Virus record (IMG/VR): IMGVR_UViG_3300045988_087505 | Span: 1 to 56,562 of that record | Origin: a virus | Length of the DNA stretch: 56,562 nt | Reading direction: 5' to 3' (one strand) | Part shown: in pieces, positions 5,912-31,758 of the stretch | Layout: the number at the start of each line of letters is the position of its first letter | How positions within the stretch are numbered: the stretch's first letter is position 1 | Notes under the pieces: generated by a model | Databases searched by the model: none | Seen by the model: the letters and a program-made list of their open reading frames with translations, nothing else | Told to the model about the DNA's origin: nothing | Translations under genes and position numbers: made by a program

Positions 5912-6030
5912 ATGCCATAAAACTCCCTAAACAAACTATAACCCAGAAAATTTTTCATTACAAGTCTATTTTTTGCACTTCGTGCATATTATAATAATAG
6001 GGAAATCAATAAATTTGGAGGTAATAACTT

Positions 6031-6619: not shown

Positions 6620-6652
6620 ATGTTTACAAGGTCAACAAAAGGAGGTGAAAAC

Positions 6653-7357
6653 ATGAACGAACTAACACAGAAATATCTCGACAGCAGAGAAGTGGCTGAA
6701 ATGGTAGACAAGCAGCATAATGACTTACTCAAAGATATTCGTAGATATATCGAGCAATTAGGTGAGGGAAATATTCCCCACACCGACTTTTTCACAGAAA
6801 GTCAGTACACAGACAAGTCTAACAGACAGAAACCTTGTTATCTTGTCACAAAGAAAGGGTGCGAATTTATCGCACACAAGTTGACCGGTGTAAAAGGAAC
6901 GGAGTTTACAGCGAAGTACATAAACAGATTTCACGAAATGGAAGATGTTATTAATACACAGCTTCCAAGTGGAAATGATTTAATTGCACTTGCTGTCATT
7001 GAGGCACAGAAAATGCTTGCTGAAAAGGATAAGCAGATTGAGGAAATGAAGCCAAAAGCAGAATTCTTTGATGCCGTAGCAGACAGCAAGACGGCAATTT
7101 CCATGAATGAGGTATCAAAAGTTCTCGGAATTAAGGGGTACGGAAGAAACAATCTGTTTGAGTTTCTTAGAAATAACGGAATACTGGACAGATGGAATGT
7201 ACCATATCAGCGATACATTGATGCAAGGTGGTTTCGAGTGGTCGAACAGAAGTATATGAAAAACGGAGAACCTTTTGTATCAACCAAAACACTGGTTTAT
7301 CAGAAGGGAGTTGAAGCAATTAGAAAGAAAATTTTGGAAGGAGGCGAGATCGCATGA
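6653..7357 (+). CDS. Antirepressor / Rha-family regulator with a KilAC (ANT) C-terminal domain
   Basis: LDSREVAEMVDKQHNDLLKDIRRYI (Rha-like N-terminus) and FFDAVADSKTAISMNEVSKVLGIKGYGRNNLFEFLR (KilAC). GGAGG RBS before the ATG at 6653. Confidence 0.8.
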   Translation: MNELTQKYLDSREVAEMVDKQHNDLLKDIRRYIEQLGEGNIPHTDFFTESQYTDKSNRQKPCYLVTKKGCEFIAHKLTGVKGTEFTAKYINRFHEMEDVINTQLPSGNDLIALAVIEAQKMLAEKDKQIEEMKPKAEFFDAVADSKTAISMNEVSKVLGIKGYGRNNLFEFLRNNGILDRWNVPYQRYIDARWFRVVEQKYMKNGEPFVSTKTLVYQKGVEAIRKKILEGGEIA

Positions 7358-7515
7358 GTGAAAAAGAAAAAGAAATTGTGGAAAAGTTAAAGGAGGCAAT
7401 TCCTAAAATGTCGGATTTTGACAAGGGTTACATACTTGGAAAGGTCGAGAATATGGCAGAACAGAAAAAGAACAGCGATGCGGATGCTGGAAAGGAGGAC
7501 TATGAAACAACCTAA
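7354..7515 (+). CDS. Small hypothetical protein (53 aa)
   Basis: ATGA overlap with the preceding stop; translated by hand; below the track cut-off. Confidence 0.45.
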   Translation: MSEKEKEIVEKLKEAIPKMSDFDKGYILGKVENMAEQKKNSDADAGKEDYETT

Positions 7516-7744
7516 AAAGCTGACAAGAGAGCAGAAACAAGTGGTATCGGCACACAGATTGAATCCGAATAACTGGATGTTGGCAGAAGAAACGGAATTT
7601 TACTTGAAACTCATTAATAAGGAGAACGGAAGAAAGAGATCTGTTGACAAATTTTTTAAAGGAGGAAAAACAAGTGGAAGTAAAGGTAAATATGACAGAG
7701 GTAACAGTACAGGACCTGTTAGACATGAAAGAAATGAAGAATAA
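7502..7744 (+). CDS. Small basic hypothetical protein (start chosen at MKQPKKLTREQK)
   Basis: AAGGAGG RBS before the ATG at 7502. An alternative small ORF at 7674..7793 overlaps its 3' end. Confidence 0.5.
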   Translation: MKQPKKLTREQKQVVSAHRLNPNNWMLAEETEFYLKLINKENGRKRSVDKFFKGGKTSGSKGKYDRGNSTGPVRHERNEE

Positions 7745-7793
7745 GGCAGTAGTCATTAATGATGGCAAAATCGTAGGATTTGAGGAGGAATAA

Positions 7794-8111
7794 ATGAGAA
7801 AAATAGAAGAACATGAAAAGGTGATTTACATTTTAGATAAAAATGAGAAACACATAATTTGCACAGAGACCAGTATTGGAATTAATGCAAAAATTGTAGA
7901 ATTGACGGCTTTAATATCATGCATCGTCTCTCATTCAGTAGATGCTGGAGTAAAATCTGGAATCGGAAAAAGAACAATGAAAATGCTGTTAAAAGAAGCA
8001 GTTGAAATCGGGCTTGATATTAATGATGCAAAATCTAGCAGGAGAAATGCTATGGAAATAAGAGATGATATTGAATCTATCTTAGATGATTTTTTTGGAG
8101 TAAAATCGTGA
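7794..8111 (+). CDS. Hypothetical early protein
   Basis: GAGGAGG RBS; operon context. Confidence 0.65.
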   Translation: MRKIEEHEKVIYILDKNEKHIICTETSIGINAKIVELTALISCIVSHSVDAGVKSGIGKRTMKMLLKEAVEIGLDINDAKSSRRNAMEIRDDIESILDDFFGVKS

Positions 8112-8407: not shown

Positions 8408-8973
8408 TGATAACAATTTCTGGAGTTGTTTCGGACGAAACAACACTTTCAAATGGAATTTACGTTTTTGAAATAAAATGTAAAAGAAAATCAGGATATT
8501 ATGATGAAATACCTGTAATGATTTCAGAAAATATTATTCCGAAAAAATGGGGATTGGATTTGTCTGGAAAATCCGTAAAAATCACAGGCGAAATTCATTC
8601 AAGAATGGAAAATAAACATAGTGCATTCTATGTTAATGCGGAAAACATAGAATATTGTGATAAACACGGAGAGAACAATGTAAATCTTAGTGGATTCATT
8701 TGCAGAACACCAAACTATAAAACCACACCAACCGGAAGGGAAATTGCGGATTTTATGCTTGCGGTAGAAAATGAAACTGAGACTAATTACATACCGTGCA
8801 TTGCCTGGAAAGAAAATGCCGTTCTTGTTTCAGGTTTAAAAAATGGAGATGAAATTTTTATAAATGGTAGAGCACAAAGCAGAAAATATAGGAAAAAAAC
8901 AGAAAATATTATTGAAGAAAGAACAGCTTATGAAATTTCTGTTTTTGACATGGAGGTATTAAATGAAAATTAA
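8407..8973 (+). CDS. OB-fold / SSB-like protein (apparently two OB modules)
   Basis: The second half (NLSGFICRTPNYKTTPTGREIADFMLAV...INGRAQSRKY) is SSB-like. Confidence 0.5.
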   Translation: MITISGVVSDETTLSNGIYVFEIKCKRKSGYYDEIPVMISENIIPKKWGLDLSGKSVKITGEIHSRMENKHSAFYVNAENIEYCDKHGENNVNLSGFICRTPNYKTTPTGREIADFMLAVENETETNYIPCIAWKENAVLVSGLKNGDEIFINGRAQSRKYRKKTENIIEERTAYEISVFDMEVLNEN

Positions 8974-9157
8974 GATCGATTTAGAAAGATATGAACAACT
9001 TTTGGATTCCGAAACAAGAATTCATGTGCTTATAAGCAAAATCAAAGGAGACAATTATGTCTGCAAAGAAGATGTTTGCAGAATTTTGGGTTATGAAAGA
9101 ATTGCTGATAAATTGGCAAATAAGGAAAGAAAGGATTTAGGATATGATGAAGATTAA
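8963..9157 (+). CDS. Hypothetical protein
   Basis: Overlapping starts and stops within the operon. Confidence 0.55.
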   Translation: MKIKIDLERYEQLLDSETRIHVLISKIKGDNYVCKEDVCRILGYERIADKLANKERKDLGYDED

Positions 9158-11072
9158 ATTGAAGAGTGTAGCACTTGAAAACTTTATGTGCTATGCAAGC
9201 AAAACATTTGATTTTTACGACATAACTAAGATCGTTGCTGAGAATGGCGTAGGTAAATCAACAATAGCCACGGCATATCTGTGGTGCCTGTTTAACTGTG
9301 ATTATGAGTTAAAGGATAATCCGGTTGTCAGAAGAGAAGTTGACGAAGTGCCAGTTGATGATATGGACGTGTCGGTCGAACTTGTACTTGATGTTGACGG
9401 AAAAGAAATCACTATGAAGAAAGTACAGAAACGTACTTATAGCAAGGATGGCAGCAGTTACAAGGACGATAACAAGTATTTTGTCAATGACGTTCCGAAA
9501 ACATTAAAGGATTTCAATGCATATCTTGATGTTGATATGAATGTGTTTAAGATGTGCAGCAACATCAACACATTTCTTAATCAGAAGCCTGCTGAAATGA
9601 GAGAGTACTTATTTAGCCTTGTCGAGAATGTGACAGACATTGATATAGCACATTCTAAGGCTGAATTAGCCGAGTTAGTTCCTTTACTTAATAAGTATAC
9701 AGTTGAAGAATTGTCAGCTATGAATAAGGCTACTAAGGCTAAGATTACAAAGGATTTACCTGTCCTTGACGGACAGATTAAGGAAAAGGAGAGGGATATT
9801 CAGATTAAGCAGGACACAGATGTATCTGACCTTGAACTGTATAGAAACAGCCTTAAAGAGCAGATTGCTGATTGTGTGGCTAAACAGACTGACAATGACA
9901 AGCTGTTAGCTGAATACGACAAGGCTAGTGCAAATATTCTTAATCTTAAGTTTGAGCTTAGTGATATGTCACGCAAGGCTAACGAGGAGAATATCAAGGC
10001 TAGGCGAGAGATTGAGGATAAGATTACTGACAAAAAGTTTCTTATTAAGCAGACAGAAAAGACTATTGCCGATACAGAAAAGAACATTGAGTATCGGCAG
10101 AAAGCTATTGATAGCATAAATAAGAATTTGCAGAGTATAAGGGATAAATGGAAAGCAGAGAATGAACGCAGATTTGACGAAGCAAGCTTTATTTGTAGTT
10201 ACTGTGGACAGGAATATCCAGAAGATAAGAAAGAGCAGTTGAGAGCCGATTTTGATAGCCATAAGGCAGAAGAGTTAAAGTCTATCACAAACAATGGCAA
10301 CTTTGTTAAGGGCAAACTTGATGAAGATAAGAAAATTCTTGAAGATTTACAGAAAGAGTTTCCACGGCATAAAGAAAGCCTTGAAATGCTGAATACAGCC
10401 ATTGCAGACCTTGAAAAGCAGTTATCCGAACTTCCACAGGAAATTGATGTGACAGCCACAGAAGAGTACAAGGCACTTGAACAGCAGATTGCCGAAAAGG
10501 AACAGGCTATGCACAAGGCTAATGACATTTCAAGTATCAAGGTTGAATTAAAGGCACAGGAAAATGATTTAAGGCAGCAGTTGTCAGAGTGCGAGCGGCA
10601 GATAGCTGAAAGCAACACAGAGAAAGACGAACAGCGACTTGAAGAATTAAGGGCAGAACAGCGTACACAGGAACAGAATAAGGCTAACGCTGAAAAAATC
10701 CTTGATTTGCTTAATGAACTGGATAAGGCAAAGAATGAAACATTGTCTGACGGCATTAACAGTCACTTCTCATTAGTTAAGTGGAAGTTGTTTGAACTGA
10801 ATAAGTCTGGCGGTTACAAGTCGGTTTGTGTACCTACAGTTAATGGAAAGTCAATTCTTACCACTATGAGTAACAAAGGCAACAGGATTTTAGGCAGAGT
10901 TGATATTTGCAACTCTATTCAGAAGATTAGCGGTATGTCAGTGCCTATTATTCTTGATGATAGTGAGAGCCTTGACAGCACTAATCAGAAGAAAGTTGCT
11001 GAAATGGTCGATAGTCAGTTGATTATGCTGATTGTCAATGATAGCGAGAAATTAGAGATTGCGGAGGGATAA
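9144..11072 (+). CDS. Rad50/SbcC-like AAA ATPase with a long coiled coil (recombination module)
   Basis: N-terminal Walker A (ENGVGKST), ~350-aa coiled coil with CxxC (CSYCGQ), C-terminal ILDDSESLD. Confidence 0.75.
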   Translation: MMKIKLKSVALENFMCYASKTFDFYDITKIVAENGVGKSTIATAYLWCLFNCDYELKDNPVVRREVDEVPVDDMDVSVELVLDVDGKEITMKKVQKRTYSKDGSSYKDDNKYFVNDVPKTLKDFNAYLDVDMNVFKMCSNINTFLNQKPAEMREYLFSLVENVTDIDIAHSKAELAELVPLLNKYTVEELSAMNKATKAKITKDLPVLDGQIKEKERDIQIKQDTDVSDLELYRNSLKEQIADCVAKQTDNDKLLAEYDKASANILNLKFELSDMSRKANEENIKARREIEDKITDKKFLIKQTEKTIADTEKNIEYRQKAIDSINKNLQSIRDKWKAENERRFDEASFICSYCGQEYPEDKKEQLRADFDSHKAEELKSITNNGNFVKGKLDEDKKILEDLQKEFPRHKESLEMLNTAIADLEKQLSELPQEIDVTATEEYKALEQQIAEKEQAMHKANDISSIKVELKAQENDLRQQLSECERQIAESNTEKDEQRLEELRAEQRTQEQNKANAEKILDLLNELDKAKNETLSDGINSHFSLVKWKLFELNKSGGYKSVCVPTVNGKSILTTMSNKGNRILGRVDICNSIQKISGMSVPIILDDSESLDSTNQKKVAEMVDSQLIMLIVNDSEKLEIAEG

Positions 11073-12302: not shown

Positions 12303-12617
12303 ATGAATAATCCATGTAGAAAATGTGAGTTTTGCTTTGCCTATAAAAATCGACACTATCCTTCATATAACGAGGCTTGTAGATTATGCGATAAGCGTAA
12401 GAAGTATGAGGAATACAAGTTAAGCAAGCGAATGTTTGTAGCAGGAGATGTGATTACTACTCTTGATGAATTATTAGAGCAGGAATGGGTTGTATGGCAA
12501 GGAATGACAAGGCATATAGAAGTTATAAAACATCTTCAGTTTAAATGCGTTATAGGATTGATTGAGGGCGGATATTTAAGAAAAGCTGTCAGAAAGGAGT
12601 TCTATGAGAATAATTAG
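12303..12617 (+). CDS. Cys-rich hypothetical protein
   Basis: CRKCEFC...CRLC; operon context. Confidence 0.6.
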   Translation: MNNPCRKCEFCFAYKNRHYPSYNEACRLCDKRKKYEEYKLSKRMFVAGDVITTLDELLEQEWVVWQGMTRHIEVIKHLQFKCVIGLIEGGYLRKAVRKEFYENN

Positions 12618-12954
12618 TCAAGATGGAACAATAGATGTTCCTTACAATTGCTCTTCTTTGAGCGTAGCAGGTGGAAAGTATAAAGATGTGGAATATGCTT
12701 GTATTAATTGCCGCAACACATCTTCTCCGAATGGCACTGTATTAGCAGAGTATTCAAGCAAAGAAAAGGCTCTAAATGCTATGAAAATGTTGAGAGAGCA
12801 ATATTCGAGAATTGAAATTATAAAAGCTCTTGCAAGTGGCACATGCGAGCATATGGAAGAATCATTAAATCCGAAAGAGCTCAAAGACATCCTTAAAAAA
12901 TACATCAATATGGAAGTTTTTCAATTTCCACAGGATGATGAAATCGAGGTGTGA
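12604..12954 (+). CDS. Hypothetical protein
   Basis: Overlaps its neighbours on the same strand. Confidence 0.6.
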   Translation: MRIISQDGTIDVPYNCSSLSVAGGKYKDVEYACINCRNTSSPNGTVLAEYSSKEKALNAMKMLREQYSRIEIIKALASGTCEHMEESLNPKELKDILKKYINMEVFQFPQDDEIEV

Positions 12955-13703
12955 GTATGAGGTTAAAATGCTTAGGCTCATCGTCAGCCGGAAATTGCTA
13001 TCTGCTAATTTCCAACAGTGGAGAAACACTTATCCTTGATTGCGGAATACCGATTAAGGAGATTAAGAAAGGCTTAAATTGGAATGTCAAAGATGTTGTG
13101 GGTGTGTTATGCACTCATAAGCACCTTGACCACAGCAAGTCGGTAAAAGATTTTGAAACTATGGGAATACGAATATCCACCCCACATATACAATACGCAA
13201 AGCATGAGGGCATGCATCGTTATCATACGATACCATTTGGCAGTTTTAAAGCTAAGGCGTTTGACCTAACAACAGTAGACGGCAGGTGGACGCATACAGA
13301 CGCAAATGGCGAACCTTGCCCGATATTCGGATTCCTGATTACACACCCAGAAATGGGGAAGATGCTTTACATAACGGATTGCGAAGTTATCAAGTGGAAA
13401 TTTAAGGACATAAACCACATTCTGCTAGGTGTGAACTATGACAAGGATTTAGTTGATACCGACAATCCAAAAGCCAATCACGTTTTCAGAGGTCACTTAA
13501 GTATTGACACGGCTTGCGATTTTGTTAAGGCAAATCATTCAGATATCTTGCAGAACGTCATAATGTGCCATTTATCAAGTGAAAATGCTGATAAGGATAG
13601 TTTTATCGAGAAGATGAAAAATGCCGTAAATGGGGCAAATGTGGACGTTGCGGAACAGGGTAAGAGTTGGAGTTTAAGGAAAGGAGATGAATGTCCGTTT
13701 TGA
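12951..13703 (+). CDS. MBL-fold metallo-hydrolase (probable nuclease partner of RecT)
   Basis: LGSSSAGNCYLL, ILDCG and CTHKHLDHS motifs. Confidence 0.75.
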   Translation: MSMRLKCLGSSSAGNCYLLISNSGETLILDCGIPIKEIKKGLNWNVKDVVGVLCTHKHLDHSKSVKDFETMGIRISTPHIQYAKHEGMHRYHTIPFGSFKAKAFDLTTVDGRWTHTDANGEPCPIFGFLITHPEMGKMLYITDCEVIKWKFKDINHILLGVNYDKDLVDTDNPKANHVFRGHLSIDTACDFVKANHSDILQNVIMCHLSSENADKDSFIEKMKNAVNGANVDVAEQGKSWSLRKGDECPF

Positions 13704-22595: not shown

Positions 22596-22856
22596 GTGAT
22601 AAGTTTTTCTGAAATACAAAAGATATCAGCAAGGGAAAGGAGGATTGTGCTGATGAAATTTTCAGAATTAACCAATATTGAAATTGAGAAAATTTTAAAA
22701 GATTGCAATTTTACGGAAGATGAAACAGAAATTTTTGTTCTTTCTTCAAAAGGGAAAAGTATAACGGAAATTTCCTATTATTGTTCTATAAGTGAAAGAA
22801 CAGTCAATAGAAAAATCAAAAAAATAAAAGAAAAAATTAATAAAATCGGAGGTTAA
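22596..22856 (+). CDS. Sigma-70 region-4-like HTH regulator (candidate late-gene activator)
   Basis: FTEDETEIFVLSSKGKSITEISYYCSISERTVNRKIKKIKEKI. Confidence 0.6.
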   Translation: MISFSEIQKISARERRIVLMKFSELTNIEIEKILKDCNFTEDETEIFVLSSKGKSITEISYYCSISERTVNRKIKKIKEKINKIGG

Positions 22857-22971: not shown

Positions 22972-23010
22972 AAATGTGCTGCATAACGTGATAAATGCGG
23001 CACATTTTTT
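22972..23010 (+). terminator. Hairpin terminator directly upstream of int
   Basis: AAATGTGCTGCA-12 nt-TGCGGCACATTT followed by TTTTT. The loop carries the 16-mer repeated in inverted orientation after int. Confidence 0.6.
22985..23000. repeat. Left copy of the 16-bp inverted repeat flanking the integrase gene (AACGTGATAAATGCGG)
   Basis: Its reverse complement matches 24436..24451 at 15 of 16 positions. Confidence 0.85.
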
Positions 23011-23026
23011 ACTAAAGGAGGATTTA

Positions 23027-24391
23027 ATGATGGAATGTGTTGCGTACATGAGGGTTTCCACTGAAAAACAGGCAGAAGAGGGAAACGGACTGGAAAGCCA
23101 GAAAAGGGACATTGAAAATTATTGTAGAAGAAATGAGCTGATTGTGACAGATTGGTACATTGATGACGGTTACACAGGTGCTAATATGAACCGCCCGGAA
23201 CTACAAAGGCTGATTTCTGATTGCGGAAAGAAGAAAGTGAAATGCGTTGTTGCATTTAAACTTGACAGAATCTCAAGAAGTATGATTGATGGATTATACA
23301 TGATCGAAAGGATTTTTCAGCCAAACAACGTAATCTTTAAATGTGTGCATGACAGTGTGAGTTATAATAGCCCTATGGAGCAAGCTTATACGCAGATGAT
23401 GGCTGTTTTTGCTCAGCTAGACAAAAATACCATGATGCTTAGGATGCGAGGCGGTATGCTTGAGAGAGTTAAGCAAGGTTACTGGATGGGTGGTGGTAAT
23501 TTACCTTACTGTTATTCGTATAGCAAGGAGCAAGGCATATTAATACCTATTCCGGAACGTGCGGAGCAGGCAAGGAAAGCACTTGAATTATTCATATCCG
23601 GATATTCAGATGTAAAAATTAAAGAAATTTGTGGTTTCAAGGGTGAGCGAATTGTATATAACGTATTAACCAGTGTTATTAATATTGGTATGATACCTTA
23701 CAAGGGAGAAGTTTATCAGGGAAAACATGAACCTATTTTTGATAAAGATAAATTTAATTTAGGGTTAGAGTTAAGGAAGTCAAGACGTTCAGCAAAAGCC
23801 TGCTGTAAGACTGAGCCTAACTTGCTAACCGGATTGTGCTATTGCGGTGTGTGCGGTTGTGCAATGCGGTATCAGAAATGGACAAATGGAAAGCATAAAA
23901 TCTACTGCATGTCTCGAAACAAATCTATGAGTTACTTGCCTAATTACAATGCAAATTGCAATAATTCCCTTGAGTGGGCGGATTATATAGAAAAGCAAGT
24001 AGAAGAAGAAATTCTTAAAATATCACTTGATTTATCATCTTACAAACCAAAGGAAAAGGCGACAAAGCTTGAAATTATGCAATCACAGCTCGAAAAGGAG
24101 CAGACAAAGTTAAAAAGATTGTATGGATTGTACGCAGATGGAAATGATACTGTTTTAAGCATGATTAAAGAACTGGAAGCACAGATTAAGGAAATGAAAG
24201 CTAATATTGCAGCAGAAAGCAAAAACACAGCTAATATACAGAAAACAGAATTTGTTTATGAGAACATAAAAAAACTTGCCGACGTTTGGGATAACATCGA
24301 CAAGAAGCAAAAAAATATGATACTGAAAAGTATAATCAAAAAAATAGTAATTGTCAATGGAAACATTGAAATTCAGCTGAAAAATTTTTAG
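23027..24391 (+). CDS. int: Large serine recombinase (phage integrase)
   Basis: AYMRVSTEKQ resolvase-type catalytic N-terminus, recombinase domain, zinc ribbon CYCGVCGC...C, C-terminal coiled coil. AGGAGG RBS before the ATG at 23027. Confidence 0.9.
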   Translation: MMECVAYMRVSTEKQAEEGNGLESQKRDIENYCRRNELIVTDWYIDDGYTGANMNRPELQRLISDCGKKKVKCVVAFKLDRISRSMIDGLYMIERIFQPNNVIFKCVHDSVSYNSPMEQAYTQMMAVFAQLDKNTMMLRMRGGMLERVKQGYWMGGGNLPYCYSYSKEQGILIPIPERAEQARKALELFISGYSDVKIKEICGFKGERIVYNVLTSVINIGMIPYKGEVYQGKHEPIFDKDKFNLGLELRKSRRSAKACCKTEPNLLTGLCYCGVCGCAMRYQKWTNGKHKIYCMSRNKSMSYLPNYNANCNNSLEWADYIEKQVEEEILKISLDLSSYKPKEKATKLEIMQSQLEKEQTKLKRLYGLYADGNDTVLSMIKELEAQIKEMKANIAAESKNTANIQKTEFVYENIKKLADVWDNIDKKQKNMILKSIIKKIVIVNGNIEIQLKNF

Positions 24392-24432
24392 CACTTACTG
24401 CACGCAGTTCCCATGGCATATAGGAAGTGCTA
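24389..24432. other. 44-bp dyad (TAGCACTT-28 nt-AAGTGCTA) at the 3' end of int; candidate attP
   Basis: Perfect 8-bp arms. The size and imperfect dyad are of the kind used by serine integrases. The position is inferred only. Confidence 0.3.
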
Positions 24433-24435
24433 ATT

Positions 24436-24451
24436 CCGTATTTATCACGTT
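24436..24451. repeat. Right copy of the 16-bp inverted repeat flanking int (CCGTATTTATCACGTT)
   Basis: See 22985..23000. Confidence 0.85.
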
Positions 24452-24471
24452 TTTTATTAATAATTATTGAG

Positions 24472-24504
24472 TGTCGTTAAAATGTCGTTAAGGTGTCGCT
24501 TTTA
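24472..24504 (+). repeat. Three direct TGTCG(T/C)T repeats spaced exactly 11 bp apart
   Basis: TGTCG starts at 24472, 24483 and 24494. A weak hairpin and T7 follow. Confidence 0.8.
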
Positions 24505-24552
24505 GCGGCTTTTTTTGTGTGAAAATAAAATCAGAAAAGGAGAGTGATTGTT

Positions 24553-24708
24553 ATGTATGATGAGTATTTGAGAGAACGGCTACTCTCTGAGGAACAGATT
24601 CAAAAGTTAGACTTAGTAACGCAAACGATACTGTTTAGCATTATCGAAGATGTATTAGAGGAGATAGAAAATGATAAACAATCCATACCAAACAACACCT
24701 ATAGCTAA
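24553..24708 (+). CDS. Small hypothetical protein (51 aa)
   Basis: AAGGAGAG RBS; overlaps the next start; below the track cut-off. Confidence 0.4.
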   Translation: MYDEYLRERLLSEEQIQKLDLVTQTILFSIIEDVLEEIENDKQSIPNNTYS

Positions 24709-25207
24709 TTACACGAACCAGTACGGAGCCTATAACTATAACCCAATGAACAGGTATCAACAACAGGAACAGTTTATACCAGCACAACTACCGGTAACAA
24801 ATCAGCAGTCTCAGATGCAGCAGATGATGCCGCAACAAATTAATTTTGTAGGAAAAATCGTTGATGGAGAAGATACAGTAAAAGCAACAGACATTCCTAT
24901 GGATGGAAATATGTATTACTTTCCAAAAGCGGATGGAACAGAAATCTATGGAAAACAATGGATTGTAAACGAGGGAAGAACTCGTATTTTGACCTTTAAG
25001 CCTGCCGAAACATCAGATGTCAACAATTCTACTATGATGATAGAAAAGTCAAAATTTGACCTATCAGACGAAAGCACACAACTATTTCTGAATAAGTTTG
25101 ATGAATTATCAGAAAAGATAGGGCAGTTAGAAAATAGATTTGATAAATCTTTAGGAACACAAAGAAAAACTTCAAAAACTCAAAGCAAGGGTGGTGATGA
25201 AGAATGA
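24671..25207 (+). CDS. Q/N/Y/P-rich (prion-like N-terminus) protein of unknown function
   Basis: The first ~55 aa are almost only Q, N, Y, P and M. A small globular region follows (GKIVDGEDTVKATDIPMDGNMYYFPKADGTEIYGK). Confidence 0.7.
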   Translation: MINNPYQTTPIANYTNQYGAYNYNPMNRYQQQEQFIPAQLPVTNQQSQMQQMMPQQINFVGKIVDGEDTVKATDIPMDGNMYYFPKADGTEIYGKQWIVNEGRTRILTFKPAETSDVNNSTMMIEKSKFDLSDESTQLFLNKFDELSEKIGQLENRFDKSLGTQRKTSKTQSKGGDEE

Positions 25208-25434
25208 ACCCAATTAACCTTTTTCAAATGATGAGAGGTGGTCCTCAACAATTTTTACAGCAGATAATGAGCAATAATCAGCTTATGAGCAACCCAATGA
25301 TGAAAAATACAATGCAAATGGCACAGAAAGGCAATATGCAAGGCATAGAGCAGATGGCTAGAAATTTATGCAAAGAAAAGGGATTAAATGCAGATGATGT
25401 ATTTAATCAGATAAAAAGCAGATTTGGTAATTAG
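25204..25434 (+). CDS. M/Q/N-rich small protein (76 aa)
   Basis: ATGA overlap with the upstream gene; strongly biased composition. Confidence 0.65.
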   Translation: MNPINLFQMMRGGPQQFLQQIMSNNQLMSNPMMKNTMQMAQKGNMQGIEQMARNLCKEKGLNADDVFNQIKSRFGN

Positions 25435-25504
25435 TAGCATATTAGATGTCTTTGCAAACTACCTAGGTGACATCTTTATGAATATATTTTTAGGAGGTAA
25501 CAAT

Positions 25505-26293
25505 ATGTTTTCAAACTCAAATTGTGCCAGCGTACCATTAGTTGCAAACATTGACGGCAACGGCAATAACGGCGGATGGGCTGACGGCGGATGGCTTTGG
25601 ATAATCGTTGTTTTCGCATTGCTCTTTGGATGGGGCAATGGTGGATTTGGCGGTTTTGGTGGCAACAATGGCGGTGGCTATGTTGCGACAGCGGCTACAC
25701 AGGCTGATATTCAGAGAGGCTTCGACAATTCGGCAGTTATCAGTAAGTTAGATGGCATTTCCAACGGACTTTGCGATGGCTTTTATGCTATGAACAACAG
25801 TATGCTTACTGGCTTTAATGGCATAAATACAAACATTATGCAGACAGGCTACGGCATCCAGCAGGCTATTAACGCTGATACAGTCGCTAATATGCAGAAT
25901 ACAAATGCTTTACAGTCACAGCTTGCAAACTGTTGCTGTGAGACAAGAGAAGCTATTCAGGGTGTAAACTACAATATGGCAACCAACACTTGTGCTTTGC
26001 AGAACACCATGAACAACAACACGAGAGACATTATTGACAGCCAGCAGGCAGGAACGAGAGCTATCCTTGATTTCCTGACTAATGACAAGATTGCAACATT
26101 ACAGGCAGAGAACAATGATTTACGCAGAGCTGCTTCACAGGATAGACAGAATGCACTTCTGACTACCACAATGGCAGCACAGACAAACCAGATTATTGAT
26201 GCAGTAAGACCTACACCGGTACCATCATTCCCAGCAAGCAACCTTTACGGATATGCTTACGGATGCGGATGTAATACAGGCTGTGGCTGCTAA
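25505..26293 (+). CDS. Gly-rich single-pass membrane protein with an N/Q/T-rich extended region and Cys-rich C-terminus
   Basis: AGGAGG RBS before the ATG at 25505. GGWADGGWLWIIVVFALLFGWGNGGFGGFGGNNGGG, internal CCCE, C-terminal GCGCNTGCGC. Confidence 0.7.
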   Translation: MFSNSNCASVPLVANIDGNGNNGGWADGGWLWIIVVFALLFGWGNGGFGGFGGNNGGGYVATAATQADIQRGFDNSAVISKLDGISNGLCDGFYAMNNSMLTGFNGINTNIMQTGYGIQQAINADTVANMQNTNALQSQLANCCCETREAIQGVNYNMATNTCALQNTMNNNTRDIIDSQQAGTRAILDFLTNDKIATLQAENNDLRRAASQDRQNALLTTTMAAQTNQIIDAVRPTPVPSFPASNLYGYAYGCGCNTGCGC

Positions 26294-26396
26294 ACAACTG
26301 AATAATCAAGTATCTTAATCGGATTGAGTGCTTTTGAGTTCCACTCGAAAGAAAACTCGAAAGATTATGTCTGCTAAGCAGTATTACTTAAATTTA

Positions 26397-26430
26397 AAGG
26401 GCAGACTTGTATGGTTTGCCCTTATTTTTT
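26397..26430 (+). terminator. Internal terminator/attenuator within the cluster
   Basis: AAGGGCA-13 nt-TGCCCTT followed by ATTTTTT. Confidence 0.6.
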
Positions 26431-26449
26431 AGAAAGAGAGGTAAAGACA

Positions 26450-26869
26450 ATGGAAATTACAGGAATTGCATTACAAACAGTTGCTGCTGGCGAGGATGTG
26501 GCATTTACAGAAACACCAGTTTGCGGTAGCAAGTGTATCGTACACAGACAGGGAAGTGGAATTATCAAGTTAAGAGGTATCACCAATCAGTGCAAGGCTA
26601 GATTTTTGGTATCGTATTCCGGAAACATTCAGATTCCGACAGGCGGTACGGTTGGTGCTATATCACTTGCGATCGCGGTTGATGGGGAACCATTACAGTC
26701 AACAAGGATGATTGTAACTCCAGCCGCAGTCGAGAATTTATTTAATGTATCGGCACAAGCATATGTTGATGTACCTTGCGGATGTTGCAGTACAGTAGCA
26801 GTACAGAATACATCTACACAGGCTATTGAAGTTCAGAACAGTAATTTGATTGCAGTAAGGGAGGCTTGA
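26450..26869 (+). CDS. Beta-rich ~140-aa protein, possibly a C1q/TNF-like (BclA C-terminal-like) fold
   Basis: The composition and strand pattern recall exosporium BclA C-terminal domains. Contains PCGCCS. This is a weak call from memory. Confidence 0.6.
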   Translation: MEITGIALQTVAAGEDVAFTETPVCGSKCIVHRQGSGIIKLRGITNQCKARFLVSYSGNIQIPTGGTVGAISLAIAVDGEPLQSTRMIVTPAAVENLFNVSAQAYVDVPCGCCSTVAVQNTSTQAIEVQNSNLIAVREA

Positions 26870-26873
26870 TATT

Positions 26874-27506
26874 ATGCACAAATGGGCTAAACAGATTATG
26901 GAATGTGTCAAGGCTAAAGTTGAAGCAATCGGATTAGATAGCTTTGAGGGGCAGAACCTTGACGATTTAAAGGATTTTACAGAAATAGCGAAGAACATAG
27001 CTTGTTTTGATAAGGATTACAGAATTGTTGAAGCTATGGAAAAGTCAGAAGATAATGAGGATATTATGCGTATGCTTGAACAGTACGAAGATTATCCGGA
27101 CAGAAGATACTATGATGAATACCGCTATGCAAACGGCAGATTTGCACCAAAAGGCAGAGGAACACGCAGAGGATATGAAGAACCGCCATATTATCATATG
27201 TACCCTGAAGCAGAGTATATGAGGGATATGGATAGAGATTATGGAAAAATGTACTACACAGAGCCAACAACAGGCAGCAACATGAGAATGACAGAAAGCA
27301 GTTACGACAGGGCAAAGAGAATGTACACAGAAACTAAGGAAATGCACAAAGCTAATACGCCAGAGGATAAGGAGCATAAGATGAAGTCACTTGACAGCTA
27401 CGCAAAAGAACTTACAAGCGATATCACAGGTATGGTGGCTGATATGACGGCTGAGGAAAAGAATCTTCTGCGCAACAAGCTTAGTAACCTTGTTTCAAAG
27501 ATTTAA
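26874..27506 (+). CDS. Y/R/D/E/M-rich hypothetical protein
   Basis: 4-nt gap to the upstream gene; low-complexity middle (RRYYDEYRYANGRF...YYHMYPEAEYMRDMDRDYGKMYY). Confidence 0.65.
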   Translation: MHKWAKQIMECVKAKVEAIGLDSFEGQNLDDLKDFTEIAKNIACFDKDYRIVEAMEKSEDNEDIMRMLEQYEDYPDRRYYDEYRYANGRFAPKGRGTRRGYEEPPYYHMYPEAEYMRDMDRDYGKMYYTEPTTGSNMRMTESSYDRAKRMYTETKEMHKANTPEDKEHKMKSLDSYAKELTSDITGMVADMTAEEKNLLRNKLSNLVSKI

Positions 27507-27512: not shown

Positions 27513-27550
27513 AGGCTATGGGTAGCAATATTCATAGCCTATTTTTCTTT
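27513..27550 (+). terminator. Intrinsic terminator ending the cluster
   Basis: AGGCTATG-12 nt-CATAGCCT followed by ATTTTTCTTT. Confidence 0.75.
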
Positions 27551-27566: not shown

Positions 27567-27887
27567 GTGATTTTTAGTATCAACGGCACTATTTGGCGTT
27601 TGGAATATAAAAATCCAAATGTGGACGAATTAAAGCGGTCAGATGGAACATTTGCATTTGGCGTGACAGATAGGAATGTGAACACAATCTATATTTCGTC
27701 CAAAATTCATGGTCCTTTTCTCCGGAAAGTCTGCATCCATGAAATTTGTCATGCAATCTGCATGTCTTACAATATTTTCCTGCCGATTGAGCAGGAAGAA
27801 ATACTCTGTGACTTTGTTGCCACACACGGAGAAGAAGTCTTTGAGATTGTAGACATGCTATTAAACACAGTTTGCCTGGTTGCATAA
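27567..27887 (+). CDS. Small HEXXH (zinc-metallopeptidase-like) protein
   Basis: IHEICHAI motif; GGAGGTG RBS; GTG start. Confidence 0.55.
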   Translation: MIFSINGTIWRLEYKNPNVDELKRSDGTFAFGVTDRNVNTIYISSKIHGPFLRKVCIHEICHAICMSYNIFLPIEQEEILCDFVATHGEEVFEIVDMLLNTVCLVA

Positions 27888-28768: not shown

Positions 28769-28996
28769 TTAAAAATACCTGATTTTTTCTTCATCAGTCG
28801 GGATAATCTCTATGATATCGCTAGGCTGACATTTAAGAATCAGGCAAAGAATATTAATCGTATTAGTCGTAATCCCTCTTCCTTCACGGATACTTTGCAA
28901 CGTAGCTTGACTAAGAATTTTATCATTTCTTAGCTTGGTTGGGGTGTATCCTCTTTTTGACAATTCATCCAAAATGTCTATTCTATATTTAAACAT
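28769..28996 (-). CDS. HTH_26/XRE-type transcriptional regulator
   Basis: MFKYRIDILDELSKRGYTPTKLRNDKILSQATLQSIREGRGITTNTINILCLILKCQPSDIIEI. AGGAGG RBS before the ATG at 28996. Confidence 0.8.
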   Translation of the reverse strand: MFKYRIDILDELSKRGYTPTKLRNDKILSQATLQSIREGRGITTNTINILCLILKCQPSDIIEIIPTDEEKIRYF

Positions 28997-29020
28997 TTCA
29001 ATTCCTCCTTTCTTTTGTTT

Positions 29021-29099
29021 AGTATACAAAAAAAGTTGTTGATAGTCAACAAAAAAAATAATAAAAATACTTGACATACACTAAAATTAGTGTTATTAT
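29021..29099. promoter_or_regulatory. Divergent promoters, each with its own palindromic operator
   Basis: Minus strand: TTGACT-17-TATACT, with TTGTTGA-tag-TCAACAA (29036-29052) over the -35. Plus strand: TTGACA (29071)-17-TATTAT, with ACACTAA-aa-TTAGTGT (29078-29093) in the spacer. Confidence 0.65.
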
Positions 29100-31053: not shown

Positions 31054-31758
31054 TCAACCATTTTTTTTAATTTTTTTCCATTTCTCCGGGTAATTTTCAG
31101 CATACCAATCAATAAAATTACCAAAAAGATTTTCTTCTGCGATTTTTCTAGCTTCTATGGCATCTTCTTTTTTATCATAAGAACCGAGATTATAATTTTT
31201 CCCTTTGAATTCAATTTGTGCCACCCATTTAGATCTATCTTTTTTATAAACAACTCCTTTAAATCCCGAAGTATTGTTTGAAGGAATTTTTTTGTATAGT
31301 TGCGAAATAGAAGTTCCTTCGATGCAATACAGTTCATTAGATTTGCCCGCTAGTTCTTTTATAAGATTCGTTCTGATGCAACCGCAACTTTTTGAGTTCC
31401 CGGCAACTAAAGAATTGTAAGGGATTTCTTTTTCATTTCCACAATCACATTTACATAGCCATATTACCGAACCAAAGGGATTTCTTTTTTCAGTTGGGTG
31501 CAATGCTGTTAATTTTCCAAATTTTTTTCCACTTATATCTTTTTTAGCATAATAATTGTTTTTCTTGTTTTGACATCCGCAACTAAAAACTTTTTTATTA
31601 TCCAAAGAATCTTTTCTCATCCATTTTTTACACTTGCAAAACGGACAAACAACGTAAAGATAAGTTCTTCTATTTTCAGTTTTACAGTCAAGTACCTGGA
31701 ATCCATTGTACTCTTTTCCAACAAGGTCTTTGGCTAATATTCTCTTTTTCTTTTCCAT
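31054..31758 (-). CDS. AP2-domain DNA-binding protein with N-terminal Cys4 repeats
   Basis: SGFKGVVYKKDRSKWVAQIEFKGKNYNLGSYDKKEDAIEARKIAE (AP2/ERF-type). Two CPFCKC...CGC / CKCDCG...CGC modules. Confidence 0.75.
   Translation of the reverse strand: MEKKKRILAKDLVGKEYNGFQVLDCKTENRRTYLYVVCPFCKCKKWMRKDSLDNKKVFSCGCQNKKNNYYAKKDISGKKFGKLTALHPTEKRNPFGSVIWLCKCDCGNEKEIPYNSLVAGNSKSCGCIRTNLIKELAGKSNELYCIEGTSISQLYKKIPSNNTSGFKGVVYKKDRSKWVAQIEFKGKNYNLGSYDKKEDAIEARKIAEENLFGNFIDWYAENYPEKWKKIKKNG

Follow-up and report, generated by a model that had tools for sequence, protein, structure and literature searches.

Gene content of the locus

Between positions 24,553 and 27,506 of a 56,562-nucleotide viral DNA (IMG/VR record IMGVR_UViG_3300045988_087505; the whole stretch is referred to below as the window), the ORF listing contains six genes on the plus strand, here designated O0–O5, which together with an insulating hairpin, a putative extended −10 promoter and a terminator make up one autonomous transcription unit. 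A first-pass annotation of this DNA had described the cluster as compositionally extreme and devoid of recognizable phage functions, and both descriptions hold. The Q/N-rich and Gly/Cys-rich compositions stand out against the window background (Q+N 10%, Cys 1.7%), O0–O5 match no family in Pfam, NCBIfam or PADLOC, the sole exception being a weak PADLOC match of O3 to the ZorA tail (E = 1e-3), and the PHROGs that do match are all of unknown function.

In variant A of the module the unit opens with O0 (24,553–24,708), which has a ribosome-binding site, overlaps the start of O1 and encodes an acidic, probably helical protein of 51 amino acids; it matches no family and was found in 93 loci by jackhmmer. 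O1 (24,671–25,207; 178 amino acids; phrog_21718) begins with a Q/N/Y/P-rich segment of about 55 residues, Q, N, Y, P and M making up 69% of residues 1–55, followed by a conserved domain of about 55 residues and, towards the C-terminus, by a helix and a charged tail. The domain reads G-x-I-W-V-x-G-E...Y-L-K-S-x-D in relatives (alignment A3, 54 sequences), and searches of Pfam and of PDB sequences gave no match to O1. O2 (25,204–25,434) is a small protein of 76 amino acids, 43% of which are M, Q or N, and its family (variants O2 and O2b, the latter being phrog_22984) always lies between O1 and O3. O5 (26,874–27,506; 210 amino acids; phrog_28802), directly 3′ of O4, is 44% Y, R, D, E and M, with a low-complexity centre rich in Y, R, G, S, D and E between helical N- and C-terminal parts (alignment A7), and is without a match in the PDB or Pfam. 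O1, O2 and O5 look like low-complexity proteins, either Q/N-rich or Y/R/G/S-rich, with small folded parts, and the products of the module look more like building blocks than enzymes.

Two small genes are found nearby. A stand-alone helix–turn–helix (HTH) protein of 86 amino acids is encoded at 22,596–22,856 on the plus strand (Pfam GerE, 1.3e-8; Sigma70_r4_2, 1.6e-7) and corresponds to the 'sigma-like' regulator noted previously; the stand-alone Spo0A_C-like gene reported alongside it found no Pfam match among the approximately 36 window ORFs covered by a non-exhaustive scan. The HTH gene lies upstream of the module in 34 of the 80 genome loci by HMM search and directly adjoins it in variant B, where it overlaps the holin gene in several loci; in this window the integrase cassette sits between the two, and in locus L101 the prophage ends just upstream of gerE and the module. 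On the other side, 27,567–27,887 (plus strand) encodes a small HExxH metallopeptidase-like protein of 106 amino acids (phrog_1233, 4.7e-13; weak SprT-like and Peptidase_M78 matches). This gene is present 3′ of O5 in all variant-A loci (L001–L080 and 18 genome loci), and its membership of the module is uncertain. An Ltp-family gene is also present in this phage, at 5304–5888.

Predicted structures of O3 and O4

O3 (25,505–26,293, plus strand; 262 amino acids; phrog_16490, 6.7e-57) is a bitopic membrane protein. It is the only cluster product with a hydrophobic stretch of transmembrane grade, and no export or targeting signal was found on any module protein, this anchor excepted. A TTG at 25,424 is an unlikely start because homologues begin at MF or MS. 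Composition and hydropathy agree with the layout recognized in the first-pass annotation, a Gly-rich N-terminus around one transmembrane helix followed by an N/Q/T/A-rich region with CCCE inside: Gly accounts for 36% of the residues around the hydrophobic stretch, and N, Q, T and A for 43% of the remainder. A short acidic tail precedes the transmembrane helix (residues 31 to about 41 in the model, 31–49 by hydropathy, with a KD19 peak of 1.67), which has Gly-rich stretches on both sides and leads into a helical rod of approximately 160 residues, a Pro-rich motif and a Cys/Gly-rich C-terminus ending in GCGCNTGCGC. The protein contains ten cysteines; CCC 143–145 is invariant and a P-x-P motif at 238/240 is conserved (alignments A4 and A6). 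From the low-confidence AlphaFold (AF2) model (pLDDT 47) the secondary structure alone was taken, with helices at 31–41, 76–114 and 119–234.

O4 (26,450–26,869, plus strand; 139 amino acids; phrog_20016, 2.9e-68) is the best conserved protein of the module. Its homologues begin with MEITG or MAEFTG and lend no support to the ATG at 26,411. Six cysteines are present, including those of PCGCCS, and G-C-C 111–113 is nearly invariant. The AF2 model (pLDDT 97.7, pTM 0.90) is a stand-alone TNF/C1q-like β jelly roll, and the best PDB matches found with Foldseek are the C-terminal domain of F-BclA (9h38; E = 1.8e-8), BxpB (8d02; TM 0.76), ExsFA (7r1m) and BclA (1wck). A likeness to C1q/TNF domains of exosporium type, earlier suggested with little confidence, was therefore right at the level of the fold. 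In BFVD many phage proteins of 135–145 amino acids resemble O4 at TM 0.8–0.9, and some uncultured-phage proteins with this fold carry the automatic name 'BclA protein'.

Regulatory elements and attachment site

A terminator scan located a hairpin with a T-run at 24,484–24,516 (plus strand), followed by TGTG-T-GAAAAT at 24,516–24,526. The stretch 24,484–24,526 would comprise a terminator or insulator and then the promoter of the module, assigned to the TRTG-type extended −10 class purely from the consensus. The hairpin itself (24,484–24,509) is weak (ΔG −9.6, z −2.2), and the arrangement [GC hairpin]-T5-8-(A/G)TG(C/T)N-(G/C)A(A/T)AAT is kept 5′ of the module in both variants, very divergent loci included. 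The conserved promoter looks like a σA type, unlike the sporulation σ type, and it has no −10 element of the σE or σK type. Two further hairpins that had been claimed are present. One with a T-run at 26,397–26,423, in the O3–O4 gap (plus strand; ΔG −17 kcal/mol, z −4.6), would act as an attenuator or as a stabilizer of the mRNA 3′ end; among 76 genome loci, 54 have a terminator-like hairpin at this place. Typically about 140 nucleotides long, the gap reaches 1.4 kb in some loci and is an insertion hot spot in relatives, with methyltransferase-like and other ORFs in the long gaps. The other, an intrinsic terminator at 27,513–27,540 (plus strand) with a 12-bp stem and a T-run (ΔG −16.2, z −4.9), ends the unit. 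The resulting architecture, terminator, own promoter, genes and terminator at a prophage edge beside att, is moron-like.

Upstream of the module, 22,976–24,391 (plus strand) encodes a large serine recombinase (Pfam Resolvase, 2.4e-30; Zn_ribbon_recom, 2.6e-8). Close relatives have tyrosine integrases in the same position; the integrase is a swappable cassette outside the module. Set against attP forms (L022 and L162) and lysogen junctions (L003, L020, L083 and L164), the window shows a putative attP, where recombination would occur, at 24,392–24,449. Within it, GCA GTT CCC ATG (24,404–24,415) mimics the A-V-P-M codons of sigG, and the phage arm GAAGTGCTAATTCCGTATTTATCACG comes after. Relatives with serine integrases are inserted inside sigG and, judging by its attP, the phage of this window would integrate there too; L003 and L020 have the module immediately 3′ of the promoter-proximal half of sigG, on the same strand. 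The three TGTCG repeats with 11-bp phasing that had been noted ahead of the cluster (24,472–24,498, plus strand) are unique in the window (0/100 shuffles; 0 expected by chance) and overlap the weak hairpin 3′ of int. They are confined to loci with a serine recombinase, loci with other integrases having other phased repeats instead, such as GTGTGTAGTAA and AATGGTGTA. The TGTCG repeats co-vary with the serine integrase rather than with the module and are part of the integrase/att cassette, outside the module.

Conservation and distribution

The genes O1–O5 are collinear in 80 species-level Clostridia genomes (O4 in 80, O1 in 78, O3 in 76, O5 in 71 and O2 in 65) and in 80/80 viral contigs, even across differing integrase types, which answers a check proposed in the first-pass annotation, namely whether the genes co-occur as a unit elsewhere. 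Two small genes, one for a GerE-type HTH protein and one peptidase-like, are usually linked to the module, the order being GerE-type HTH, peptidase-like gene, O1, O2, O3, O4 and O5. In a sample of about 22 relatives collected by way of DnaB, so that the module played no part in their choice, about 20 carried it where the region was covered. Nor is the cluster special to this prophage. It is a fixed part of the lineage and very widespread, being common to thousands of phages of gut Clostridia, siphophages and prophages; O3 homologues form at least 8000 clusters at 90% identity, and those of O4 form 676 at 50% identity (members among the O4 matches listed are mostly of about 135–160 amino acids). 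Order, spacing and cis elements are kept down to about 30–50% protein identity. In the closest viral contigs, a set selected on O4, this protein is 96–100% identical, whereas O1 and O5 fall to 33–60%.

A complete module is carried by Butyrivibrio phage Ceridwen, described as likely virulent and seen to grow only lytically; the stretch read has no annotated integrase, its GerE-type HTH gene is at locus positions 9614–9835 and an HNH endonuclease gene lies directly 3′ of O4. The host, Butyrivibrio fibrisolvens, is one that we take to be non-sporulating. The module also occurs in prophages of Vescimonas (V. fastidiosa), Subdoligranulum, Agathobacter and Oscillibacter, all presumably non-spore formers, and many spore formers are found among its host families. 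In Vescimonas, L137 and L152 it comes after the lysis genes and occupies the edge of the prophage; in this window it neighbours attP. Variant B modules are directly 3′ of tail and lysis genes, immediately downstream of endolysin and holin, and relatives with tyrosine integrases have the same module at a site unrelated to sporulation.

Proposed function and alternatives

The region is best read as an uncharacterised, autonomous, assembly-type phage module. Starting from the reality and composition of the genes, the O4 fold, the secondary structure of O3, the synteny and spread and the conserved cis elements, we infer its assembly, topology, timing and role. O3 would be anchored in the cytoplasmic membrane by its single N-terminal helix and would carry the rod, the Pro-rich motif and the Cys/Gly tail. 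The module proteins would join in one rod-and-cap complex at the cytoplasmic membrane face, with O3 as the stalk and O4, presumably a trimer, as a cap that possibly docks on the Pro/Cys tail of O3 in the way that ExsF docks exosporium leader peptides, and the complex may be set in a low-complexity matrix potentially cross-linkable through Cys and Tyr. The unit is expected to be transcribed by host RNA polymerase, and its products would therefore appear early in infection, in the lysogen or in both; the hairpin 3′ of O3 would render O0–O3 more abundant than O4–O5. The complex could have a general phage–host role at the envelope, for example in exclusion, protection or host takeover. To this reading as a whole, a rod-and-cap envelope complex of the cytoplasmic face that is neither spore-only nor a standard virion part, we tentatively assign a probability of roughly 40%. 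Counting against it, Cys cross-linking is unlikely in a reducing cytoplasm, a fixed rather than sporadic module is atypical for accessory cassettes, and the overlap of the HTH and holin genes in variant B may allow late co-transcription with lysis genes.

The first-pass annotation had proposed a lysogenic-conversion module for a surface or spore-coat-like structure. In a sporulating lysogen the products would be deposited from the mother-cell cytoplasm onto the forespore as an exosporium- or coat-like layer or appendage, with O4 as an ExsFA/BxpB-like anchor, O3 as a membrane-anchored nucleator and the Cys/Tyr-rich proteins as a cross-linked matrix. Signal peptides are likewise absent from coat and exosporium proteins (ExsY/CotY, CdeC/CdeM, CotG/CotC), which are rich in Cys or Tyr; the exosporium matches of O4, among them the stand-alone and similarly sized ExsFA/BxpB, the GerE-type regulator, the moron-like position at a prophage edge, the sigG integration site and the spore-forming host families all point the same way. 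However, the complete module is present in the lytically seen Ceridwen and in the prophages of Vescimonas, Subdoligranulum, Agathobacter and Oscillibacter, its site in tyrosine-integrase relatives has no relation to sporulation, the promoter is σA-like, a terminator stands between the module and the sigG fragment, and Pfam and NCBIfam provide no sequence-level tie to any coat or exosporium family. From the earlier proposal the genes, the unit, the O4 fold and the moron-like layout stand; the σA-type promoter, Ceridwen and the lack of export signals other than the O3 anchor speak against the rest. The module is probably not spore-specific, and we regard a spore-coat-like assembly as unlikely and do not favour it.

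Slightly less probable still is an accessory structure of the virion, such as head or tail fibres or decoration, encoded outside the main morphogenesis operon, with O4 as a TNF-like knob, O3 as the fibre shaft and the low-complexity proteins as linkers or chaperones. TNF/C1q-like knobs are common at the tips of phage fibres, and fibre domains of cyanophages A4 and A-1(L) and the φ812 spike knob are among the lower-ranked PDB and BFVD matches of O4. Virion proteins need no signal peptides, and the module is fixed in the lineage, is carried by a lytically growing phage and directly follows tail and lysis genes in variant B. Yet lysis genes, a terminator and a host-type promoter separate it from the structural genes, the window has it beside int and the repressor, with TerL about 11 kb further downstream, and O4 is, in the O4-selected set, the best conserved protein, the opposite of receptor-binding tips. 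A genuine transmembrane helix, prion-like Q/N domains and RG/Y-rich domains would be unusual in virion proteins, and no structurally annotated PHROG matches the module.

We consider it improbable that the module is a lysis or egress accessory in which O3, like an i-spanin or fusion protein and aided by O4 and O5, breaches an outer layer of the envelope as infection ends. The position of variant B right after endolysin and holin, the possible overlap of the HTH and holin genes and the spanin-like layout of O3 would suit such a role, as would matches of the Gly-rich hydrophobic segment and helix of O3 to influenza HA2, but these are below threshold (E 0.3–5) and not significant. Moreover, the hosts are monoderm and a lipoprotein partner is missing, the endolysin gene of the window (3087–4028) is about 20 kb away, the module has its own insulated promoter, and five to seven genes far exceed any known lysis accessory. 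A chance neighbourhood of unrelated or spurious ORFs, such as AT-rich DNA can yield and as the absence of family annotation might suggest, is ruled out by synteny and conservation, each ORF having homologues in the hundreds to thousands whose order, spacing and cis elements are retained at low identity, and by the confidence of the O4 model.

Comparison with known systems

The exosporium basal-layer proteins ExsFA/BxpB (ExsF) of the Bacillus cereus group (PDB 7r1m, 8d02 and 9h3d) are, like O4, stand-alone TNF/C1q-like jelly rolls (about 140–170 amino acids) made without a signal peptide, and superpose on it at TM 0.73–0.76 (E ~2e-6). The ExsF trimer is a docking adaptor that holds Pro-rich leader peptides of its partners in interface clefts (PMC12357932), to which the conserved Pro-rich C-terminal motif of O3 offers a counterpart. 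Sequence identity is, however, only 8–10%, and O4 has no Pfam or NCBIfam membership. O4 is encoded by Clostridia phages and not by the Bacillus chromosome, it is not partnered by collagen-like BclA proteins, and its module lacks a visible sporulation-type promoter. The C-terminal domains of BclA and F-BclA (BclA_C, PF18573; 1wck and 9h38), the best structural matches of O4, reach TM 0.73 at 14–18% identity; in BclA, however, the same chain also bears an exosporium leader and a long GXY stalk of collagen-like type. O4 has neither, and a stalk, if one exists, would be the separate α-helical protein O3.

ExsY/CotY of Bacillus, CdeC/CdeM of C. difficile and CotG/CotC/CotU resemble the module in composition only, through clustered Cys, Tyr/Arg/Ser-rich low-complexity regions and the lack of signal peptides; no sequence or profile similarity to Cys-rich or Tyr-rich coat or exosporium families was detected, and nothing ties expression of the module to sporulation. 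Rz-type i-spanins and class I viral fusion proteins share with O3 an N-terminal membrane segment beside Gly-rich sequence, a long helical rod and conserved Cys, but the HA2 matches stay at E ≥ 0.3, and O3 differs from the spanins in having no outer-membrane lipoprotein partner, in its monoderm hosts and in lying away from the lysis genes in the window. Phage morons and lysogenic-conversion cassettes, exemplified by HK97 gp15 and Ltp of Streptococcus thermophilus phage TP-J34, are likewise independent terminator–promoter–genes–terminator units at a prophage edge or by the int/immunity region, with a membrane-anchored product that has no phage-structural homology. The usual moron is a single gene of scattered occurrence in related phages, whereas the present module consists of five to seven collinear genes, is fixed in its lineage and is kept across host families.

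Gene content of the module

Six ORFs (O0–O5) follow the integrase gene directly on the plus strand, as the first-pass annotation had stated, at 24553–24708 (O0), 24671–25207 (O1), 25204–25434 (O2), 25505–26293 (O3), 26450–26869 (O4) and 26874–27506 (O5). The extreme compositions claimed for their products are borne out by residue counts for each ORF. Residues 1–55 of O1 are 69% Q/N/Y/P/M, O2 is 43% M/Q/N and O5 is 44% Y/R/D/E/M. O3 has a single hydrophobic stretch of transmembrane grade (residues 31–49) within sequence that is 36% Gly, a remainder that is 43% N/Q/T/A, and ten Cys residues in all, with an internal CCCE and with GCGCNTGCGC at the C-terminal end; O4 has six Cys residues, PCGCCS among them. 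For comparison, the other proteins of the window average 10% Q+N and 1.7% Cys.

The earlier statement that the cluster lacks a recognisable phage function also stands. None of O0–O5 belongs to an annotated family of Pfam, NCBIfam or PADLOC, and the PHROGs to which O3 (phrog_16490), O4 (phrog_20016) and relatives of O1 (phrog_21718), O2 (phrog_22984) and O5 (phrog_28802) are assigned are all labelled 'unknown function'. In PADLOC, O3 weakly matches the tail of ZorA (E = 1.3e-3, 15.7 bits), probably an effect of coiled-coil composition, and the other module proteins match nothing. All 54 members of the O1 family lacked a match in Pfam, and profiles of O1, O3, O4, O5 and pepX (a small peptidase-like gene of some relatives) retrieved nothing significant from the PDB sequences; the HA2 and FliC matches in that search (E = 0.1–5) were rejected as compositional. 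Among virion structural families, no PHROG, Pfam or PDB match was obtained for the module proteins, and the module sits outside the TerL-to-tail block of the window (38948–2441).

The phage genome in the window is circularly permuted. Its tail fibre (66–2441), Amidase_3 endolysin (3087–4028), Ltp-family lipoprotein (5304–5888) and Rha/ANT (6599–7357) genes are followed by RecT, SSB and DnaB, an 86-aa GerE/sigma70-region-4 gene (HTH; 22596–22856) and the large serine recombinase gene int (22976–24391; Pfam Resolvase, 2.4e-30, plus Zn_ribbon_recom). A gene for a small HExxH protein (27567–27887) comes after O5, followed by an HTH_26 repressor on the minus strand (28769–29077), TerL (from 38948), the portal (from 41485) and a 1415-aa ORF (49325–53572) which its length and location lead us to regard as the tape measure. 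The sigma-like regulator reported earlier is the HTH gene; the stand-alone Spo0A_C-like gene was not recovered, as no Spo0A_C Pfam match occurs in the approximately 36 window ORFs scanned, a set that omits several short ORFs. The Ltp-family gene, located after the lysis genes, encodes a 'host cell surface-exposed lipoprotein' with three repeats (E = 5.6e-37). The classical superinfection-exclusion genes, those of the Streptococcus thermophilus phage TP-J34, belong to this family, and the window phage thus already has one recognised exclusion gene. On the minus strand, an ORF at 31054–31758 gives a sub-threshold AP2-domain match (E = 9.8e-6; 26.2 bits, below the cut-off of 33.3); it is located in the second of the leftward blocks, flanked by the repressor region and the packaging genes.

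Conservation, spread and hosts

The genes co-occur as a unit in other phages and prophages, in the same order in viral contigs and in bacterial genomes. Retrieval through O4 gave 80 viral contigs; the module was present in all of them, with any integrase type, and the order O0-O1-O2-O3-O4-O5-(HExxH protein) was kept despite integrase replacement. The gene order was equally constant at 80 loci from different bacterial species, identified with HMMs of the window proteins and a closer O4 alignment than the 65-sequence alignment used for modelling; O4 was found at 80 of them, O1 at 78, O3 at 76, O5 at 71 and O2 at 65. Two arrangements occur: variant A, as in the window, has HTH, the int cassette, O0–O5 and the small HExxH protein, and variant B has HTH, pepX and O1–O5. 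A similar small gene of approximately 108 aa follows O5 in at least two variant-B loci (L152, 10872–11204, and L167, Butyrivibrio phage Ceridwen, 13687–14013).

Sampling independent of the module was obtained through DnaB, and is informative for those loci that extend to HTH and sufficiently far past it. The module lies beyond HTH in approximately 20 of the approximately 22 relatives in which the region is covered, and is therefore fixed in the lineage, not scattered; 14 DnaB-anchored loci, at 59% DnaB identity, have longer early regions. The O3 family comprises at least 8000 clusters at 90% identity, and the O4 family 3600 clusters at 90% and 676 at 50% identity. Gut Clostridia make up most of the named hosts (Lachnospiraceae, Oscillospiraceae, Acutalibacteraceae and Ruminococcus), and the cultured isolates include Lachnospira intestinalis, Lachnospiraceae JLR.KK009, Acutalibacter and Vescimonas fastidiosa. 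In the prophage of Vescimonas the module is flanked by the amidase gene and the end of the prophage. Several host genera, namely Butyrivibrio, Vescimonas, Subdoligranulum, Agathobacter and Oscillibacter, we take to be non-sporulating.

Butyrivibrio virus Ceridwen (MN882553) carries a complete variant-B module directly 3′ of the endolysin and two small genes, in the order HTH, terminator, pepX, O1, O2, O3, O4, an inserted HNH endonuclease gene (12494–13288) and O5, followed by XRE, antirepressor and replication genes. No integrase is annotated within the 24 kb stretch read. Only lytic growth of Ceridwen has been seen, and its authors suggest that it is virulent (PMC7372960).

Putative promoter and terminators

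Hairpins were found at both sites where terminators had been proposed, internally at 26397–26423 (ΔG = −17, z = −4.6) and after O5 at 27513–27540 (ΔG = −16.2, z = −4.9); a further hairpin at 24484–24509 is weak (ΔG = −9.6, z = −2.2). This last hairpin coincides with an element conserved upstream of the module in all variants and in very divergent variant-B loci, which consists of a GC hairpin, T5–8 and (A/G)TG(C/T)-N-(G/C)A(A/T)AAT approximately 15 nt ahead of the first RBS (window 24484–24526, with TGTG-T-GAAAAT; further copies upstream of the first module gene in L082, L084, L095, L099, L104, L114, L120–L123, L128, L129, L153 and L158). At several variant-B loci the element lies 100–220 nt upstream of pepX, leaving room for a short O0-like ORF. 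By consensus, the element is read as a terminator/insulator joined to a TRTG extended −10 promoter that would be used by the host vegetative RNA polymerase of the sigma-A type. The unit adjoins an att site or prophage end in L020, L083, L152, L164 and L248.

At 54 of the 76 genome loci, the gap of approximately 140 nt between O3 and O4 contains a hairpin resembling a terminator, and more O0–O3 than O4–O5 is likely to be made. In a minority of loci this gap is much longer, up to 1.4 kb, and holds methyltransferase-like and other ORFs. The gap (window 26294–26449) is an insertion hot spot, as illustrated by a cytosine methyltransferase-like ORF in L088 (gap at 8617–9980) and another ORF in L086 (gap at 8931–9965).

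The integration cassette and sigG

The three TGTCG repeats said to precede the cluster are real (24472–24498, 11 bp phasing), unique in the window and never found in shuffles, but they are part of the int/att cassette. The stretch from int to O0 is modular: TGTCG occurs only with the serine recombinase, and GTGTGTAGTAA, AATGGTGTA and others occur with other integrases. Because every type of integrase comes with phased repeats of its own, these are assigned to the cassette, and a role as an operator of the module was rejected, since the occurrence of TGTCG follows that of the serine-integrase cassette and tyrosine-integrase variants have other repeats in its place. The cassette is swapped among otherwise near-identical phages, with a serine recombinase or one of several tyrosine integrases, and each version has its own three to four phased direct repeats and its own terminator; its position is between HTH and O0 in L001–L080 and L161–L166 (window 22976–24520). 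Contigs ending approximately 260–460 nt upstream of O0 were considered as phage termini and this was rejected; some start inside int or sigG, and it is more likely that the assembly was broken or the provirus cut where the variable int cassette meets the conserved module.

In lysogens with the serine recombinase, the phage end next to O0 abuts a broken sigG, interrupted at the codons A-V/I-P-M (approximately residues 94–97). L003 (1–123) and L020 (1–300) contain the first 97 sigG codons, MTMYKVEICGVNTSKLP...FSTYAVPM, on the strand of the module, and L083 (L. intestinalis; 7421–7995), L101 (6600–7164) and L164 (8425–9000) contain the rest, IIGEIKRYLRD...ISQAQVSRLEK, on the opposite strand, so that the lineages insert in opposite orientations. 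The putative attP region of the window (24392–24449) reads GCA GTT CCC ATG at 24404–24415, encoding A-V-P-M, after which comes the phage arm common to these phages, GAAGTGCTAAT.CCGTATTTATCACG. As attP mimics the AVPM codons and carries this arm, the window phage probably also targets sigG, in the L020 orientation. Tyrosine-integrase relatives are integrated elsewhere, beside a Mem_trans (PF03547) gene, and the module is therefore independent of the sigG site.

Several further observations concern this locus. The int stop codon (TAG, 24389–24391) is in frame with the AVPM-mimicking codons, four codons downstream, and after integration would precede, in frame, the 3′ two-thirds of sigG. In the variant-B lysogen L153, an intact sigG (5339–6109) lies approximately 2 kb past the module end of the prophage, with the insertion beside the gene, not inside it. 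A Clostridiales-1 sRNA (Rfam RF01699, 146.9 bits) is present at 6898–7066 on the minus strand of L083, in the host flank beside the sigG fragment. DnaB-anchored relatives carry a sigma-like gene, 33–45% identical to segments of SigG, approximately 3–5 kb upstream of DnaB (L242, 6548–7012; L169, L205, L222, L225, L233, L234 and L247, at 4.9–7.3 kb); no comparable match was obtained in the window at E = 1e-8.

Structural features of the module proteins

The AF2 model of O4, built from the 65-sequence alignment, is all-beta (pLDDT 97.7, pTM 0.90). In a Foldseek search of the PDB, the spore-surface proteins F-BclA CTD, ExsFA, BxpB and BclA filled ranks 1–8 and 17 of the 19 top matches (E = 1.8e-8 to 8e-6, TM up to 0.76), including the C-terminal domain of F-BclA (9h38; E = 1.8e-8), BxpB (8d02; TM 0.76), ExsFA (7r1m) and the C-terminal domain of BclA (1wck); the remaining two were EDA-A1. 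Lower in the list were TNF ligands (with EDA-A1 already at ranks 9 and 20), together with C1q domains and the knobs of some phage fibres. Model and matches together identify the ten-strand TNF/C1q-like beta jelly roll of exosporium proteins. The C1q/TNF likeness tentatively suggested in the first-pass annotation thus holds for the fold and fails as family membership: O4 had no match to Pfam BclA_C or NCBIfam at E up to 1, its 65-sequence profile found no BclA or ExsF chain among PDB sequences, and identity to the fold matches is 8–18%. Among predicted viral structures, the nearest were many stand-alone proteins of 135–145 aa from uncultured gut phages (TM 0.8–0.9), some auto-named 'BclA protein'. 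O4 and the listed representatives of its 50%-identity clusters are short, mostly approximately 135–160 aa. O4 is presumably a TNF-fold cap or adaptor, and would form a trimer.

The low-confidence O3 model (pLDDT 47) was used for secondary structure alone. It comprises a disordered segment (1–28), a helix (31–41), a Gly-rich coil, helices at 76–114 and 119–234, and a terminal Cys/Gly coil. In family alignments CCC (143–145) is invariant, a block TRDIID...RAILD...ENQ-L-LAASQ is conserved, P238 and P240 are nearly invariant, with relatives reading P-x-P-x-P-A-Y-x-V-x-N-P, and the Cys-rich tail is present throughout although variable in sequence. O3 begins with a short acidic tail and has no basic residue until after the helix; it is therefore predicted from sequence to be N-out/C-in, with a cytoplasmic rod, which is consistent with the lack of an export signal on the other module proteins. 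ExsF trimers hold Pro-rich leader peptides in inter-subunit clefts (PMC12357932), and O4 could, by analogy, offer a docking site for the Pro-rich motif conserved in O3.

O1 has a prion-like N-terminus, a conserved domain of approximately 55 residues and a C-terminal helix, and in O5 conserved helical ends flank a semi-conserved Y/S/R/G centre. O0 was considered as a recombination directionality factor and excluded, since it stays with the module regardless of integrase type. pepX (phrog_3754; approximately 125 aa; L137, 7937–8317; L167, 10050–10427; L248, 6981–7394) is the first gene after HTH in variant B and is absent from the window; its invariant Asp16-Cys17, His97 and Asp108 correspond to a papain-like triad, which suggests a papain-fold or transglutaminase-like enzyme.

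Possible function

The module proteins look like parts of an assembly rather than enzymes. They would comprise a rod anchored in the membrane (O3), the TNF-fold cap or adaptor (O4) and three proteins of low complexity, accompanied by the small HTH and a small peptidase-like gene. In the reading that we favour, with a probability of roughly 0.4, O3 and O4 would form a membrane-anchored complex on the cytoplasmic side, within a matrix of low-complexity proteins; the complex would be made from the host-type promoter early in infection, in the lysogen or in both, and would serve a general role at the level of the envelope, such as exclusion, protection or takeover.

The spore-surface assembly proposed in the first-pass annotation draws on the fold of O4, the Cys/Tyr-rich compositions, the linked GerE-type HTH and the sigG connection, and we nevertheless regard it as unlikely, given that the module is complete in Ceridwen, that hosts presumed to be non-sporulating and tyrosine-integrase variants carry it, and that its promoter is sigma-A-like. 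That the module is an accessory of the virion seems quite doubtful: its fixation, and the late genes that adjoin it in variant B, would fit such a role, but an insulated promoter, a TM helix and prion-like domains would not, nor would the position of O4 as the most conserved protein (96–100% identity, against 33–60% for O1 and O5, in a set selected on O4, which biases this ranking). Quite improbable, too, is a broader scenario in which gut Clostridia phages carry 'integument' genes, with O4 as an ExsFA-like TNF-fold adaptor, O3 as membrane-anchored rod and prion-like or Tyr/Cys-rich proteins as matrix, that would build a cross-linkable protein layer, exosporium- or coat-like, covering the spore or the infected cell or surrounding the progeny, and that in serine-integrase lineages would be coupled to a sigG-splitting prophage gating sporulation. 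A role in lysis or egress, suggested by the layout of O3 and by the non-significant HA2 matches, is very improbable.

Few uncharacterised gene sets in the Clostridia phages of human and animal guts are as widespread as this module, and its combination of a spore-surface fold, a membrane-anchored rod and prion-like proteins, all behind a single conserved promoter of host type, points to an undescribed phage-built supramolecular structure. If the module alters the cell or spore surface, it would matter for how dominant gut commensals are transmitted, persist and are recognised by the immune system; should it prove to be a virion or egress device, siphophage biology would gain a new component. 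The system is tractable in Ceridwen, which is in culture and has the complete module, and in the cultured lysogens V. fastidiosa MM35, L. intestinalis CLA-AA-H89B and Lachnospiraceae JLR.KK009. The interruption of the forespore gene sigG by phages with large serine recombinases is a side finding that merits separate attention.

Comparison with known systems

The phage as a whole resembles sporulation-gene intervening elements of the skin and SPbeta type, in that related lysogens combine a large serine recombinase with insertion within the coding frame of a sporulation gene. To our knowledge, the known elements of this kind all lie in mother-cell genes; sigG is a forespore gene, and a literature search retrieved no report of a prophage interrupting it.

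At the level of the individual proteins, the resemblances are partial. BclA has a collagen-like GXY stalk and an N-terminal exosporium leader, whereas O4 has neither and leaves no room for a stalk. The YjcZ-type proteins to which O3 had been likened are Gly-rich single-TM proteins of approximately 50 aa; O3, with 262 aa, a long helical rod and no NCBIfam or Pfam match, shares only the Gly-flanked hydrophobic helix, and the likeness is not sustained. The layout of O3 also fits an i-spanin, with a TM segment and a coiled coil, but no lipoprotein partner was found; the variant-B module adjoins the lysis genes, and that of the window is approximately 20 kb from the endolysin.

Like a moron, the module is an autonomous unit at the prophage edge, with a consensus-called promoter upstream and a terminator downstream; unlike a moron, it is not sporadic among related phages but present in nearly all relatives in which the region is covered. 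A literature search returned no description of it. The fold of O4 and the moron-like layout are known, and their combination, size and spread are new to the literature searched. There is a modest chance that the module represents something categorically new, and we rate it as an autonomous phage accessory cassette with an exosporium-type TNF fold.
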